A stretch of 64,000 bases of DNA. Source: Escherichia coli. Its GTDB lineage: Bacteria > Pseudomonadota > Gammaproteobacteria > Enterobacterales > Enterobacteriaceae. Positions 1,726 to 55,861 of this stretch are shown here, piece after piece (within the stretch, counting starts at the first letter, position 1; each line of letters begins with the position of its first letter). The translations under genes were made by a program, and so were the position numbers. The stretch is taken from NCBI RefSeq assembly GCF_003019035.1, contig NZ_CP027447.1; one strand, given 5' to 3'. The notes beneath the pieces are model-generated. The model saw only the letters and a list, made by a program, of their open reading frames with translations. It ran no database searches and was not told the DNA's origin.

Positions 1726-3120
1726 CTACTCTCTCCGTTCCGGCAATCTAAAGTTAATCTTTTCCACATTAACAATATGGTGATTAATCCTGTCGATATC
1801 GACGGAGCTTTGTCCTTTTTCATTCACCGCATGAACATTTGCAAGAGACAGCAGTGTTTCTTTTTTCGCCATAAACACGCCGCGAACGTCTTTGCGCATG
1901 TCAAAGTTCATGCTCAATGCTGGTCCAACTGAGGATTCCTGCATCACCTTGATATTACGCATAAAAAGATGTTGCGGCTTGTTGTGTAACTCCAATGACG
2001 CACGCTTCATCTCAATGTTAGTCAGCGCCACAAAGGAGACAGCATTCCCGGCGGAGATTTGGATGCCGCGCAATTTATAAGCAAGGTGAGTGTTATCCAG
2101 TTGAATATTATTCACTCGGAAATTTTGCGGTATCGAGAGATATTTGCCTTTAATTACCCCATAGCCGATTAACATCCCGGCACTATTAATCATTTCAATA
2201 TTATCAATTACAAAGTTGTCACAACCATAAATAGCAACTGTGGCGTTATCAATACCTGCTTTCTTACTGAAATCTGGCGTGATATTACGAGCTTTGATAT
2301 TACGGATAACAAAATGTTTACCATTTTCAACATGGATCAGTTGCCGACAATCCGATCCCGTGATATTCGCCACAACAAAGTTTTTCACTGCCTGGTCTTC
2401 CGGGTAGTTGTTATCATAAGTGCTTCCCGCAAGACCTATGCCAATGCCCCAGTTGATTTTGCCGTTAGTACAGTTGATGCGCTCGATGACATGGTCAGAT
2501 ATCAAAATATCACGGTCGTTAATCGCCACGTTCCATTCAATAGCGTCGCCCTGTAAGTCACTGAACTTACAGTTGGTGATGTTGGCACCGATAATCTGAT
2601 TATGAAATCCCTGGCGTAAGATGGCGTAGTTAGCGTGGCTAACGGTGAGGTTATCGATGGTCAGGTTGCGCATGACCCGTTTGTTTTTGCCGCCGATATA
2701 GATCTGCGTCACCGGGCCAAAGCCGCTCATCACCAGCCCTTTGATGGTGCAGTCAGAACCACGCACATCCAGGGTGATGTTATGTATACTGCCGCCCTCC
2801 CCCCCTGTCACCTGGCTGCCGTCCTGTAAGACAAATCGCCCTCTGCCGTTGCCGCGCAGGCTTCCAAGGATGTGTAACGTTTTACCTGCAGGAATGAAGA
2901 TGCCGGTGTTGATATTGTCGCAAACCAATCCGGCGGGCACGACGACCGTTTGCCCTTCGCTGAAGGCTTGTTTAAATGAGGCGATCCAGTCGTGAGGGTT
3001 GTAGTCGTTAATGTTAACGCTTTGCCGGGCAGGAAGTGCACGGGCGAAAGGGGTATGGAGGAAGGCAAGCGCCGAGCTTGCCGTCAGGAAGGTGCGTCGG
3101 GAGAGTTTTTTAAATGGCAT
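1726..3120 (-). CDS. wcaM: Colanic acid biosynthesis protein WcaM (twin-arginine-like signal SRRTFL at N-terminus)
   Basis: 464-aa ORF; position as last gene of the wca operon before galF; N-terminal [20 protein letters not shown]. Confidence 0.9.
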
Positions 3121-3130
3121 GCGTTCTCCT

Positions 3131-4351
3131 CTATAAAGCCTGCAGCAAGCTGGCGAGTTCTCGATTAATCACCTGCTGGTTAAAATCGTGTTCGACTTTT
3201 TCGCGAGCACGTTTGACGACCGGAGCCAGTTCGTCGGTGTCCAGTTGGCTAAACGCCGCCAGTCGTTGCGCCAGTGCTCGAGCATCGTTCTCAGGCACCA
3301 GCCAGCCGGATTTGTCGGCCTCCACCAGTTCCGGTATTCCGCTATGCAGAGTAGAAACCACCGGAATGCCGACCGCCATTGCTTCCATCAGCGCCACCGG
3401 AATGCCTTCCATATCGCCGTCAGCACCCGTTACCGATGGCAACAGAAAGACATCCGCGTCGTCGAGCATCGCCTTCACTTCGTGGCTCGGTTTAAAGCCC
3501 GGCATCTCTACCACATCTTCCAGTTGATATTGTTCTATGAGGGTGCGCAGGCGTCGTTCCCACGGGCCAATGCCGAGGATGCGATAACGAAATGCCACGC
3601 CCTGCTCTTTCAACTGACGGCAGGCTTCGATCGCCACGTGCAGGCCTTTTTTCTCGGTTAAGCGTGCGACGGAAATGATTTCCAGCGGCGTTGCGGGCGC
3701 TTTCACCGGACGCGGGCTAAAACGCGTCATGTCCACGCCCATGCGCGATACGGCAATTTTTTCCCTCGGGCAGCCCATTTTTTGCAGCCTTCCGGCCCAC
3801 AGTTCGCTAATCGGTAACATCAAATCGCCACGACGAAACAGTTGTTGATATTCGGGAGTGTAATGGTTGAGCACTTCCCGACTGGAGATATCAATGCCGT
3901 GGAAGATAGTGGCAATTTTGCCGCGAATGACACCCAGTTCCCGTAGTTTTGCTGCGGTTACCCCCGCAGGGCCAAAATGTGCGATAAAGACATCGGCATA
4001 AAATGGTATTGCGACCTGACCACAAATGGCAGACAAAATCAGGTTCCGCGACTCTGCACCATAGCGTTTGAGGTTAAGCGCCTGCCAGGTATTTTTACGA
4101 TGAATACCGCGCAACGTCTGGCTGGCGCGGTGGCGCAGTTTCGCCACTTTGCCTTGTGGCTCGTCCTGTAACCAGCGGGTTCTGGCGGCAAGGTTATATT
4201 TTGTCCATGCCGCGTGGGTGTTTTGTGTGTCGCCTTTTTGCAGCGCGACAATCTCCACCTCAAAGCCCATATCAATAAACGCGGTAATTTGATTGAGGAC
4301 GAAGGTTTCCGACGACAGTGGAAATTTCAGTAAAAAGAAGCCGACCTTCAT
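3131..4351 (-). CDS. wcaL: Colanic acid glycosyltransferase WcaL (GT4 family)
   Basis: 406-aa ORF, glycosyltransferase-like sequence, conserved position in the cluster. Confidence 0.9.
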
Positions 4352-9999: not shown

Positions 10000-10099
10000 G
10001 TCGTTACCCTTTTTCAGGCAATAGTTGGCCCTGACCGAAACGGCCAATTTTGTTTTTTCGTTATTTACCGGAGAATTAATCCGGTTGATTATTCAACGG

Positions 10100-24438: not shown

Positions 24439-24478
24439 CACGCTACCGCCCCTGGCTTTTTAGCTACCAATACACTGA
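24439..24478 (-). promoter_or_regulatory. JUMPStart/ops element in the wza (cps operon) leader
   Basis: Plus strand cacgctaccgcc at 24439-24450 is the reverse complement of ops GGCGGTAGCGTG; flanks nearly identical to the copy at 360-399. Confidence 0.75.
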
Positions 24479-39138: not shown

Positions 39139-39900
39139 TCATTCTGTCCACATAGCCAGTGCTAACGTTTTATCATCATCGGTACGCTCGTTTACCGCTG
39201 GGCTGGACAAAAACTGCTTTAACAATTCAGGTAATAAATCGAGTTGTTCCTGCGTTGCTGACGCCAGTCCATTGAAAAACGGGGTAAAGAAAGGCACATG
39301 CGGAGAATTATCCAGCATATTTAACGCCAGTCTCTGAATACCATCCGTAAATGCTGCAACTCTATGCGCACGCTCAGTGCTGGTGAAAGTTTCCAGTCTG
39401 AAAACGGCATCTTCATCGGTAATGAAATGCGTCATGTTGGCATATTCACCCACCATCGGCGTGAGAGGCAATTGCAGACCGTGACCCAAATCTACCACCA
39501 CGCCGCCATCGCCAATCTGCATAATCAAGGTGCCGTCAGGCGATGAAATCAGTCCCAGAAATGTGCAGGCAAAATCGCGAACCGCTAATTCTTTGGCTTC
39601 CGCCTCGGCAAAAAGTCGCTGACGAACGGTCAGCACAATATCCGTTGCGAGGACATCATTAAGCCCCAATTCCCCGCCCTGCACTTTTTGCATCATATAA
39701 GCCATCGCTTCATTGACGGCAAGCGTCGCACCTTCGCCACCCTGCGAAACGCTGCCTGCGCCATCAGCGACAAATACCGTCAATAATGGCTGCTGGTCTT
39801 CTAGCCAGGCAACCTGCATCTGGCAGGCATCCTGGCAAGGCAAGTCCGCGCTGATGTGCGACGTTCCAACGGTTGATGCATAGACCAGACGCCAGCTCAC
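39139..39900 (-). CDS. yegK: PP2C-family Ser/Thr protein phosphatase YegK (PphC)
   Basis: 253-aa ORF with PP2C-like DGAGS motif; overlaps yegL by 4 nt. Confidence 0.88.
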
Positions 39901-40556
39901 ACTGACGTCCAGCCTTTTGGCGCTTCCAGCACAACTTCCGTTCCCGGCGTGGAGCGGGAAACCGAACGCAGCGAACTGGATAACCAGCTAAATAGTTCGC
40001 GGAATTGTAATCCTTGAAGAGGCAAAGGCTGACGAACGCTGATTTGGGCCAGCGTCTTCATATCCGCCCCCTGAACACCGATGGAAAAGAAGGCAAACTT
40101 CTTATCTTCTTCCCCCTGAAACACCTTGTTGGCAGCAGCCTGCCACTCATCGGTTGGTGCGCCATCGGTAATCAGGAAAATCCACGGACGATAATAGGAA
40201 ATACCATTGGCGCGATACTCACGTTTGCGCTCCTCAACCATATTCAGGGCTTTGGTAATGGCGGCGCCCATTGGTGTATCCCCATGGGCAAACAGGATGG
40301 GCGGGAAAAAATTAGCGGCGCTGGTAAAGGGTTGTTCCACATGCACTGGGCCGAACGTCACAATACCGAGTTCCACTCTTTTTAAGGCCAGCGGGTCGGC
40401 AAGCAGCTCATCGCGAAAGGTAACCAATCCGGCGTTAAGTTCATTAATGGGTCTACCGTTCATAGAACCAGAAACATCCAGCAGCAAAATGCAGGGGCAA
40501 CGTGGTTCCGGGTTACTGGCAAAATCGCTGGTGGCAAACGTGATTTGTTCGCTCAT
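39897..40556 (-). CDS. yegL: von Willebrand factor A (vWA) domain protein YegL
   Basis: 219-aa ORF; MIDAS motif [11 protein letters not shown]. Confidence 0.88.
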
Positions 40557-40736
40557 AAGAAATCCTTTCTTAGAGAATTATTGAGGTCCGGTATCATACC
40601 GATTGCAATAATGAAATAAGAGCAAACGAAGAAACTTTCAGAATTAGGCCCGGCGGCGCAGAAAATTTTGCTATTCGCCTCGCAAGAACGGAGAGCCGTC
40701 GATTGACACTAAGGGCGGAGTGACATAATTTCAGGA

Positions 40737-40886
40737 GTGAGGGTTAGGGAGAGGTTTCCCCCTCCCCCTGGTGTTCTTAGTAAGCCTGGAAGCTAATCAC
40801 TAAGAGTATCACCAGTATGATGACGTGCTTCATCATAACCCTTTCCTTATTAAAAGCCCTCTTCTCCGGGAGAGGGTTTCCCGTTT
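40737..40886 (+). ncRNA. sibA: Sib antisense sRNA (type I antitoxin), copy 1; ends approximate
   Basis: -35 ttgaca (40703-40708), 17-bp spacer, -10 taattt (40726-40731); intrinsic terminator gccctcttctccgggagagggtttcccgtttc ending ~40886; fully antisense to ibs ORF. Confidence 0.6.
40777..40836 (-). CDS. ibsA: Type I toxin IbsA-like, 19 aa (MMKHVIILVILLVISFQAY)
   Basis: Reverse-complement translation; SD aaggaaag upstream; differs from remembered K-12 IbsA by one residue (P17Q). Confidence 0.8.
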   Translation of the reverse strand: MMKHVIILVILLVISFQAY

Positions 40887-41071
40887 CAGCGTCCCGCTGA
40901 AATCGTCGGCTTACCTCCTTTCGCCCTGAATGCAGTCTATCGCTAACGCGTGAACAAAATAGTTTCCTCTGTGATTATTCCGTAACGACTCGCAAAGAAT
41001 ATTTGCTGGCAGGATCGCAGACTACAAAGCCTGCGGATTGACAATCTTATCGTGAAGGCATAATTTCAGGA

Positions 41072-41214
41072 GTGAGGGTAGAGCGGGGTTTCCCCCGCCC
41101 TGGTAGTCTTAGTAAGCGGGGAAGCTTATGACTAAGAGCACCACGATGATGAGTATCTTCATCATGACCCTTTCCTTATTTATGGCCCCTTCCTCGGGAG
41201 GGGCTTTCCCGTTT
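41072..41214 (+). ncRNA. sibB: Sib antisense sRNA, copy 2; ends approximate
   Basis: -35 ttgaca 41038-41043, -10 taattt 41061-41066; terminator hairpin ggcccctcctcgggaggggc + ttcccgtttc (41184-41214). Confidence 0.6.
41109..41165 (-). CDS. ibsB: Type I toxin IbsB-like, 18 aa (MMKILIIVVLLVISFPAY)
   Basis: Reverse-complement translation with SD; hydrophobic Ibs-family peptide. Confidence 0.8.
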   Translation of the reverse strand: MMKILIIVVLLVISFPAY

Positions 41215-41399
41215 CAGCGTCCCGCTGAAATCGTCGGCTTACCTCCTTCTGTCCTGTATGCAGTCTATCGCTGACTTGCGGATAAAATAGTTTCCAATGT
41301 GATTATTGCGTAACGTCTCGCAAAGAATATTTGCTGGCAGGATCGCAGACTGCAAAGCCTGCAGATTGACAATATTATCGTGAAGGCATACTTTCAGGA

Positions 41400-41543
41400 G
41401 TGAGGGTAGAGCGGGGTTTCCCCCGCCCTGGTAGTCTTAGTAAGCCGGGAAGCTTATGACTAAGAGCACCACGATGATGATCCACTTCATCATGACCCTT
41501 TCCTTATTTAAGGCCCCTTCCTCGGGAGGGGCTTTCCCGTTTC
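41400..41543 (+). ncRNA. Sib antisense sRNA, copy 3; ends approximate
   Basis: -35 ttgaca 41366-41371, -10 tacttt 41389-41394; terminator hairpin 41512-41543. Confidence 0.55.
41437..41493 (-). CDS. Type I toxin Ibs-family, third copy, 18 aa (MMKWIIIVVLLVISFPAY)
   Basis: Reverse-complement translation; same frame/SD as copy 2 but with Trp at position 4. Confidence 0.7.
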   Translation of the reverse strand: MMKWIIIVVLLVISFPAY

Positions 41544-41700
41544 AGCGTCCCGCTGAAATCGTCGGCCTACCTCCTTTTGCCCTGAATGCAGTCTATCGCT
41601 AACGCGTAGATAAAATAGTTTCCTGTGTTATTACTGGATGCGTGCTCGCAAATGTGCCCGCCATTCAGACGATTCCCGATAGTGTTTCATAATTCCTCCA

Positions 41701-41771: not shown

Positions 41772-43019
41772 ATGAAAGGCAGTTATAAATCCCGTTGGGT
41801 AATCGTAATCGTGGTGGTTATCGCCGCCATCGCCGCATTCTGGTTCTGGCAAGGCCGCAATGACTCCCGGAGTGCAGCCCCAGGGGCGACGAAACAAGCG
41901 CAGCAATCGCCAGCGGGTGGTCGCCGTGGTATGCGTTCCGGCCCATTAGCCCCGGTTCAGGCGGCGACCGCCGTAGAACAGGCTGTTCCGCGTTACCTCA
42001 CCGGGCTTGGCACCATTACCGCCGCTAATACTGTTACGGTGCGCAGCCGCGTGGACGGTCAACTGATGGCGTTGCATTTCCAGGAAGGCCAGCAGGTCAA
42101 AGCTGGCGATTTATTGGCAGAAATTGACCCCAGCCAGTTCAAAGTTGCATTAGCACAAGCCCAGGGCCAACTGGCAAAAGATAAAGCCACGCTTGCCAAC
42201 GCCCGCCGTGACCTGGCGCGTTATCAACAACTGGCAAAAACCAATCTCGTATCTCGTCAGGAACTGGATGCCCAACAAGCGCTGGTCAGTGAAACCGAAG
42301 GCACCATTAAGGCTGATGAAGCAAGCGTCGCCAGCGCACAGCTGCAACTCGACTGGAGCCGCATCACCGCACCAGTCGATGGTCGCGTTGGTCTCAAGCA
42401 GGTTGATGTTGGTAACCAAATCTCCAGTGGTGATACCACCGGGATTGTGGTGATCACCCAGACGCATCCTATCGATTTGCTCTTTACCCTGCCGGAAAGC
42501 GATATCGCTACCGTTGTGCAGGCGCAAAAAGCCGGAAAACCGCTGGTTGTTGAAGCCTGGGATCGCACCAACTCGAAGAAATTAAGTGAAGGCACGCTGT
42601 TAAGTCTCGATAACCAAATCGATGCCACTACCGGTACGATTAAAGTGAAAGCACGCTTTAATAATCAGGATGATGCACTGTTTCCCAATCAGTTTGTTAA
42701 CGCGCGTATGTTAGTCGACACCGAACAAAACGCCGTGGTGATCCCCACCGCCGCCCTGCAAATGGGCAATGAAGGCCATTTTGTCTGGGTGCTGAATAGC
42801 GAAAACAAGGTCAGCAAACATCTGGTGACGCCGGGCATTCAGGACAGTCAGAAAGTGGTGATCCGCGCAGGTATTTCTGCAGGCGACCGCGTAGTGACGG
42901 ATGGCATTGATCGTCTGACCGAAGGGGCGAAAGTGGAAGTGGTTGAAGCTCAAAGCGCCACCACTTCGGAAGAGAAAGCCACCAGCCGCGAATACGCGAA
43001 AAAAGGAGCGCGCTCCTGA
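41772..43019 (+). CDS. mdtA: Multidrug efflux RND membrane-fusion protein MdtA
   Basis: Start at [21 protein letters not shown] (415 aa); ORF-track upstream extension rejected. Confidence 0.93.
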
Positions 43020-49219: not shown

Positions 49220-50635
49220 ATGACAGATCTTCCCGACAGCACCCGCTGGCAATTGTGGATTGTGGCTTTCGGCTTCTTTATGCAGTCGCTGGACACCACC
49301 ATCGTAAACACTGCCCTTCCCTCAATGGCGCAAAGCCTCGGGGAAAGTCCGTTGCATATGCACATGGTCATTGTCTCTTATGTGCTGACCGTGGCGGTGA
49401 TGCTGCCCGCCAGCGGCTGGCTGGCGGACAAAGTCGGCGTGCGCAATATTTTCTTTACCGCCATCGTGCTGTTTACTCTCGGTTCACTGTTTTGCGCGCT
49501 TTCCGGCACGCTGAACGAACTGTTGCTGGCACGCGCGTTACAGGGCGTTGGCGGTGCGATGATGGTGCCGGTCGGCAGGTTGACGGTGATGAAAATCGTA
49601 CCGCGCGAGCAATATATGGCGGCGATGACCTTTGTCACGTTACCCGGTCAGGTCGGGCCGCTGCTCGGTCCGGCGCTCGGCGGCCTGCTGGTGGAGTACG
49701 CCTCCTGGCACTGGATCTTTTTGATCAACATTCCGGTGGGGATTATCGGTGCGATCGCCACACTGATGTTAATGCCGAACTACACCATGCAGACGCGGCG
49801 CTTTGATCTCTCCGGCTTTTTATTGCTGGCGGTTGGCATGGCGGTATTAACGCTGGCACTGGATGGCAGTAAAGGTACAGGACTGTCGCCGCTAATCATC
49901 ACTGTGCTGGTGGCTGTGGGCGTGCTAGCCATTGCGCTTTATCTGCTGCATGCCAGAAACAATCATCGCGCCCTGTTCAGCCTGAAACTGTTTCGCACCC
50001 GCACCTTTTCGCTGGGCCTGGCGGGGAGCTTTGCCGGACGTATCGGCAGTGGCATGTTGCCCTTTATGACGCCGGTTTTCCTGCAAATTGGCCTCGGTTT
50101 CTCGCCGTTTCATGCCGGGTTGATGATGATCCCGATGGTGCTCGGCAGCATGGGGATGAAGCGAATTGTGGTACAGGTAGTGAATCGCTTTGGTTACCGT
50201 CGGGTACTGGTGTCGACCACGCTGGGCCTGTCGCTGGTCACCCTGCTGTTTATGACTACCGCTCTGCTGGGCTGGTACTACGTTTTGCCGTTCGTCCTGT
50301 TTTTACAAGGGATGGTCAACTCGACGCGTTTCTCCTCAATGAACACCCTGACGCTGAAAGATCTACCAGACAATCTGGCGAGCAGCGGCAACAGCCTGCT
50401 GTCGATGATTATGCAATTGTCGATGAGTATCGGCGTCACTATCGCCGGGCTGTTGCTGGGACTTTTTGGTTCACAGCATGTCAGCGTCGACAGCGGCACC
50501 ACACAAACCGTCTTTATGTACACCTGGCTTAGCATGGCGTTTATCATCGCCCTTCCGGCGTTCATCTTTGCCAGAGTGCCGAACGATACGCATCAAAATG
50601 TAGCTATTTCGCGGCGAAAAAGGAGCGCGCAATGA
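49220..50635 (+). CDS. mdtD: MFS transporter MdtD
   Basis: 471-aa 14-TM MFS ORF immediately after mdtC stop. Confidence 0.93.
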
Positions 50636-55533: not shown

Positions 55534-55861
55534 TTCATTTCGATTATTTTTCCCGGATGGAAAATTCTTAGAAACCGATCACATACAGCTGCATTTATTA
55601 AGGTTATCATCCGTTTCGCTGAAAAACATAACCCATAAAATGCTAGCTGTACCAGGAACCACCTCCTTAGCCTGTGTAATCTCCCTTACACGGGCTTATT
55701 TTTTATACATAAGCCGTATCCTGGTAACCGTCTTCCATTGACCACATCGATAGAATCTCCCCTCATAGCACGATGCCTTTCACTTATTGGCATCGTGCTC
55801 GCACAGGTTCCGGTTACGCACAGCCAGAACGCGCATGTTTGACGCTTACCAAAAAATATTC

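Follow-up and report, generated by a model that had tools for sequence, protein, structure and literature searches.

[quoted passage not shown] A sequence-only reading of the window analyzed here (the whole stretch of 64,000 nucleotides from E. coli contig NZ_CP027447.1) had claimed that three tandem ibs/sib repeats are present where K-12 carries two, and that such copy-number variation changes the dosage of the toxins, which it described as membrane-depolarising. The array almost certainly consists of ibsA/sibA, a K-12-like ibsB/sibB and a third unit with the Ibs allele termed KWI, differs from the K-12 array by one 328-bp period through unequal homologous recombination, and represents a frequent polymorphism.

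Organization of the ibs/sib array

The left neighbor of the array is yegL, which encodes a vWA-domain protein and is located on the minus strand at 39897..40556, according to the open reading frame (ORF) list and the RefSeq annotation of NZ_CP051751.1. The right neighbor is mdtA, located on the plus strand at 41772..43019, as obtained by transferring the annotated locus (positions 2723-3970) to window coordinates; in the ORF list, this region is covered by a longer frame that starts with GTG. The gap between these genes contains three complete ibs/sib units arranged head to tail at 40679-41652, with lengths of 310, 328 and 328 bp. Unit 1 (A type) spans 40679..40988, unit 2 (B type) spans 40989..41316, and unit 3 (B type), which is absent from K-12, spans 41317..41644. 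These limits are defined by alignment and by the heptamer CTCGCAA, which occurs at each unit boundary (40679, 40989, 41317 and 41645). Tandem Repeats Finder detects a 328-bp period at 40724-41623 with 2.7 copies and 89% matches, and a repeat search of the window detects three-copy repeat families with a spacing of 328-335 bp. An alignment that includes the flanks indicates that all three units are complete, including a segment of ~190 bp located 3' of each Sib gene, and that the left part of unit 1, upstream of the −35 element, resembles the repeat only weakly. The possibility that the third unit is partial is excluded by the CTCGCAA anchors and the unit alignment. Thus, the claim of three tandem units is borne out by the tandem repeat analysis, the repeat families, the anchors, the alignment and three SIB_RNA matches, and the array is not reduced to two complete units by any of them.

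The three units had also been described as near-identical in their flanks and different in the toxin ORF. This description is correct for units 2 and 3, in which the Sib RNAs are 95.6% identical and the ORFs are 91.2% identical, with five of the six differences in the RNA located inside the ORF. It is not correct for unit 1, which is 74-80% identical to units 2 and 3 over the promoter, the Sib RNA and the ORF; in the downstream spacer, the identity is 85-86%.

The Rfam model SIB_RNA (RF00113) matches the plus strand of the window at 40703-40851, 41038-41180 and 41366-41508, with scores of 149.5, 142.6 and 141 bits respectively (the gathering score is 56 bits) and E-values of 1e-29 to 1e-31. 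Matches with these scores and E-values exclude a chance resemblance. The ends of the Sib RNAs in the window are obtained by mapping the curated K-12 annotation of sibA, ibsA, sibB and ibsB onto it. By this mapping, the SibA RNA of unit 1 (144 nt), the SibB-type RNA of unit 2 (136 nt) and the Sib RNA of unit 3 (136 nt) are encoded on the plus strand at 40739..40882, 41074..41209 and 41402..41537 respectively. The first nucleotide of SibA, a G at 40739, is assigned by homology, and all three Sib RNAs begin with G; a G at position +1 has been reported for SibA and SibB (PMC12956327). Both the minimum free energy and centroid structures predicted for the three RNAs contain a closing stem P1, the P5 and P6 hairpins, a single-stranded J1/7 region over the ibs Shine-Dalgarno (SD) sequence, and a terminator P7. 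These folds match the P1-P7 architecture described for SibC by Han et al. 2010 (PMC2943612), and their z-scores range from −4.0 to −5.4, the latter being that of SibA.

Each unit had been claimed to carry a promoter of the form TTGACA-17 nt-TAATTT and an intrinsic terminator. The candidate promoters of units 1 and 2, on the plus strand at 40703..40731 and 41038..41066, have exactly this form, and that of unit 1 is also placed by the mapped K-12 sibA annotation. In contrast, the candidate promoter of unit 3, on the plus strand at 41366..41394, has TACTTT as its −10 element, as does that of K-12 sibB. An intrinsic terminator is predicted by folding in all three Sib RNAs, as this claim requires: G+C-rich hairpins followed by UUUCCCGUUU are located at ~40854-40879 in SibA, where a U tract follows, at ~41184-41205 in unit 2 and at ~41510-41535 in unit 3. 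A generic promoter and terminator scan of the window calls neither the Sib promoters nor the plus-strand terminators, because the −10 element matches at only three of six positions, although the −35 element is perfect and the spacer is 17 nt, and because the U tract is interrupted. For these reasons, the result is not taken as evidence against these sites. The promoter positions agree with the annotated 5' ends of K-12, and the sites are supported by homology to the RNA ends mapped in K-12 and by the folds.

Each unit contains an intact hydrophobic ibs ORF, which is antisense to the Sib gene and located wholly within it. The ibsA gene of unit 1 (minus strand, 40777-40836) encodes a peptide of 19 amino acids, MMKHVIILVILLVISFQAY, annotated by PGAP as IbsA (WP_010723109.1). 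The ibsB allele of unit 2 (minus strand, 41109-41165) encodes a peptide of 18 amino acids, MMKILIIVVLLVISFPAY, which is K-12 IbsB with the substitution L4I and is annotated as 'Ibs family toxin' (WP_100792650.1). The ibs gene of unit 3 (minus strand, 41437-41493) encodes the KWI allele, a peptide of 18 amino acids, MMKWIIIVVLLVISFPAY, likewise annotated as 'Ibs family toxin' (WP_012767741.1). The sequence AAGGAAAGGG is located two nucleotides 5' of the ATG of all three ORFs, and the SD sequences are located at 40839-40848 for ibsA, 41168-41177 for unit 2 and 41496-41505 for unit 3. The sequence-only reading, which assigned to each unit a hydrophobic ORF of 18-19 amino acids on the minus strand with its own SD sequence, is thus accurate for all three units. 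Lys3 and Leu11 are common to the three peptides. For Salmonella IbsA, His3 and Leu11 have been reported to be necessary for toxicity, residue 3 is always positively charged among the Ibs peptides compared, and the peptide has been reported to inhibit the Fo sector of ATP synthase (bioRxiv 10.1101/2025.05.26.656083).

When the regions upstream of ibs in the window are aligned with those of K-12 ibsB-E, no confident −35 and −10 elements of an ibs promoter are detected for the A-type and B-type units. Across types, the aligned regions have only two features in common, namely a hairpin of the form CAGCG...CGCTG and the sequence antisense to the Sib terminator. The hairpin, CAGCG-TCC-CGCTG, is small and is located at 40887-40899 and at the equivalent positions of units 2 and 3, within the ibs leader, just 3' of the Sib terminator. 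Each of the upstream regions compared, from window units 1-3 and from K-12 ibsB-E, has an equivalent hairpin at this position, with a CAGC...GCTG stem and variation elsewhere. A strong SD-like sequence, AAGGAGGT, is also present on the minus strand at 40913-40920, 41231-41238 and 41569-41576, ~75 nt 5' of each ibs ATG. It lies in what is presumably the leader or promoter region of ibs, is not followed by a start codon, and is absent upstream of ibsC, ibsD and ibsE.

Relation to the K-12 array and copy number among strains

The position of the array between yegL and mdtA and the arrangement of the flanking genes are the same as those of the K-12 sibA/sibB locus. The K-12 array, sibA/ibsA-sibB/ibsB (QUAD/SIB repeats, RF00113), is also the same as that of the window in orientation and unit anatomy. 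MG1655 carries two units at this locus, sibA/ibsA and sibB/ibsB, so that the number assigned to K-12 in the earlier reading is correct. The Sib RNA of window unit 1 and K-12 SibA are 99% identical. That of unit 2 is 99% identical to K-12 SibB, from which it differs by one nucleotide, and this substitution changes Leu4 of IbsB to Ile. The window differs from K-12 by the extra 328-bp KWI unit located between ibsB and mdtA, the Sib RNA of which is 96% identical to SibB.

A site-by-site alignment locates the junction between the two architectures. Over ~300 columns, from the start of the unit to just past the Sib terminator, unit B of K-12 agrees with window unit 2, with only two exceptions, at the sites where units 2 and 3 differ. 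Beyond these columns, it follows window unit 3 up to mdtA. Unit B of K-12 thus consists of the body of unit 2 and the right end of unit 3, so that exactly one 328-bp period separates the two architectures. The junction is located in the conserved segment that follows the Sib terminator, in agreement with the expectation for unequal homologous recombination, and represents an unequal crossover of one period. By such recombination between the repeats, one 328-bp period has been either gained or lost.

The three-copy state is neither new nor unusual. The locus of the window is 100% identical to that of E. coli SCU-301 (NZ_CP051751.1), for which the RefSeq annotation lists all three Ibs toxins. 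When the flanks alone (1.2 kb on each side) are used as a query, and 60 records are taken at regular intervals along the ranked list of 5,423 matches from complete E. coli genomes, the flank spans indicate three copies in 25 of the 60, two copies in 24, four copies in seven and other arrangements in four; the copy-number frequencies are based on this systematic sample and on the identity bands given below rather than on a full census. A search with the whole interval gives a similar picture, with three copies in 16 and two copies in 16 of the 40 rows spread over its results. The identity of the whole interval is at least 95% in 2,477 records and 90-95% in 2,885 records, and only four records reach at least 99%. 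The Sib allele of unit 3 is present with one mismatch at most in 1,097 records, including O157:H7, and the exact Sib allele of unit 2 is rare, with only three records at 100%. Tandem duplication of ibs-sib has been described, and the reported numbers of ibs genes are 6 in O157:H7 EDL933, 7 in Sakai, S. boydii and S. sonnei, and five in K-12 (PMC2887945). The unusualness that had been implied for three copies is thus not upheld by the frequencies of the three-copy and two-copy states and by the RefSeq annotation, and the three-copy state fits the published ibs counts. It is a common state of a published polymorphism and has already been annotated.

The strains differ not only in the number but also in the order of the units. 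O157:H7 has three copies in the order A, KWI and KIL-SYPAY, in contrast to the order A, B(L4I) and KWI of the window, and the Sib RNA of its unit 2 is 100% identical to that of window unit 3. Strain TUM20902 has four copies (IbsA, KIL-SYPAY, KWI and KLL-SYPAY), and only one nucleotide distinguishes its units 2 and 4. BL21(DE3) also has four copies (IbsA, K-12 IbsB, KWI and KIL-SYPAY). The B-type units are mosaics, in which a block at the P6 loop and codon 4 (GUAG, GUAU or UCCA) and a block at the C-terminus and the target recognition domain TRD1 (SFPAY or SYPAY) are found in several combinations across strains. This variety of combinations indicates that recombination or gene conversion has occurred among the units.

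These results indicate that K-12 is unrepresentative at this locus, with ~40% of the sampled complete E. coli genomes carrying three units and ~12% carrying four, a state that includes BL21(DE3). The array in itself matters little, as the copy-number polymorphism is common and the type I toxin-antitoxin family to which it belongs is well studied. The ldr/rdl and zorO-orzO/zorP-orzP systems likewise consist of a small hydrophobic toxin and an RNA antitoxin, with tandem intergenic duplication and a copy number that varies among strains (PMC2887945). Rdl and Orz, which belong to different families, base pair with the 5' UTR; Sib, in contrast, covers the ORF entirely as well as the SD sequence (PMC3919570).

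Antisense control and toxin dosage

Expression, toxicity and repression are considered here by analogy with experiments on K-12 and Salmonella. Sib is a constitutive antisense RNA that covers the ibs ORF in full together with the ribosome-binding site, blocks translation and causes RNase III-dependent decay (PMC4147584). It contains two independent recognition domains, TRD1 (+46 to +68) opposite the C-terminal half of the ORF and TRD2 (+99 to +115) opposite the SD sequence, the latter being helped by the P6 loop (PMC2943612). The toxicity of the peptide upon overexpression, and its relief by the cognate Sib, have been described for K-12 modules only (PMC2943612). In each unit of the window, the sigma-70 promoter would drive constitutive synthesis of a plus-strand Sib RNA of ~140 nt, which would end at the intrinsic terminator. 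By homology with K-12, this RNA would pair with the ibs mRNA through TRD1 on the ORF side and through TRD2 on the SD side, where the single-stranded J1/7 region and the P6 loop would be involved. This pairing would block translation and promote decay of the mRNA, so that the toxin would remain silent.

Every unit has its own antisense Sib gene, and an extra unit adds a toxin gene and an antitoxin gene together. A simple rise in toxin dosage, as proposed in the sequence-only reading, is therefore unsupported, because each added unit also brings an antitoxin gene, which is possibly redundant.

The extent of this redundancy depends on whether units 2 and 3 are insulated from each other. The Sib RNAs of these units may cross-repress each other's ibs mRNA, in which case the third copy would provide redundancy rather than a separately controlled toxin. 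The two RNAs, which are 96% identical, have one mismatch in TRD1, with an overlapping perfect run of 44 nt, and one mismatch in TRD2, with a perfect run of 26 nt. According to Han et al., a contiguous duplex of 22 nt is sufficient for repression (PMC2943612). The K-12 Sib pairs for which a lack of cross-reaction has been reported contain 4-9 TRD1 mismatches, and their perfect runs do not exceed 13 nt. The close similarity of units 2 and 4 in TUM20902 also argues for cross-repression. However, the remaining differences between the two RNAs cluster in the P6 loop (GUAU in one and UCCACU in the other), which is implicated in TRD2-dependent recognition (PMC2943612). In addition, K-12 SibD and SibE have a common run of 36 nt over TRD2, yet ibsA is the sole gene described as departing from cognate-only repression in K-12 (PMC2943612). 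On balance, the high identity, the single mismatch in each domain and the long perfect runs give cross-repression roughly an even chance. Co-resident B-type alleles are so similar to each other that the cognate-only rule of K-12 Sib RNAs may fail for them.

The only clustered difference between co-resident B-type copies is the patch in the P6 loop, which corresponds to codons 4-5 of Ibs (Leu, Ile or Trp at residue 4). Among strains, this patch assorts independently of the C-terminal/TRD1 block. It is conceivable, though rather unlikely, that the P6 loop, rather than TRD1 and TRD2 as defined for SibC and SibD, is the main discriminator of tandem copies; alternatively, the copies may be wholly uninsulated, unlike those of K-12. 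If the P6 loop acts as the discriminator, the independent assortment would be a sign of modular recombination, and of diversifying selection acting on the specificity of the antitoxin.

It is very unlikely that unit 3 is a decaying, non-functional duplicate. Such a reading could appeal to its −10 element, TACTTT instead of TAATTT, and to the lack of a known phenotype. However, TACTTT is also present in K-12 sibB, and the −35 element of unit 3 is a perfect TTGACA. The ORF, SD sequence, Lys3 and Leu11, and terminator of this unit are all intact, its Rfam score is high, and its Sib allele is retained with at most one mismatch in the 1,097 records mentioned above, O157:H7 included. An origin of the third copy as an assembly artefact is hardly worth considering, because, although short reads can mis-assemble tandem repeats of 328 bp, the three units differ at diagnostic positions, the three-unit architecture recurs in roughly 40% of complete genomes, which originate from many laboratories, and the locus is 100% identical to that of a finished chromosome. 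Both readings are rejected on these grounds, namely the diagnostic sites, the intact parts and the recurrence of the unit, in favor of a third complete ibs/sib unit.

Insertions at the array and other elements of the window

Two of the sampled genomes with far-apart flanks carry a lambdoid prophage at this locus, with integrase and excisionase genes adjoining mdtA. In strain 2022N21-074, an HK022-like prophage of ~49.6 kb, which carries retron Eco8, is located inside the last ibs/sib unit. The prophage site is seen at positions 1-60 and 49660-49700 of one extracted locus (L010), and also in loci L009 and L011. Both junctions of the 2022N21-074 prophage contain the core CCTTATT(a/t)AAGG, which corresponds to the ibs SD sequence and the J1/7 region of Sib. 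Its int and xis genes and their counterparts in HK022-type phages are 95-97% identical. The attP sites of HK022 and Gally contain ATTCACCT where the element of 2022N21-074 has ACCTTATT, and the arms are otherwise similar. The attP sequence reconstructed for the 2022N21-074 prophage is found in no deposited phage of the collection searched. Of 5,426 complete genomes, 85 contain the attR junction, and an HK022-like prophage is integrated within an ibs/sib unit in about 1.6% of genomes. A literature search on prophage integration at the yegL-mdtA ibs/sib locus returned nothing relevant. In the window, unit 3 contains the unoccupied integration sequence, CCTTATTTAAGG, at 41498-41509. An insertion of another kind is present in E. 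coli SF10, in which IS150 is located between ibsA and ibsB of the same array (positions 612-1981 of extracted locus L012).

Elsewhere in the window, Rfam models match the CyaR sRNA on the plus strand at 55616-55701, the algC RNA motif on the minus strand at 10004-10053, and two JUMPstart elements on the minus strand at 360-398 and 24439-24477.
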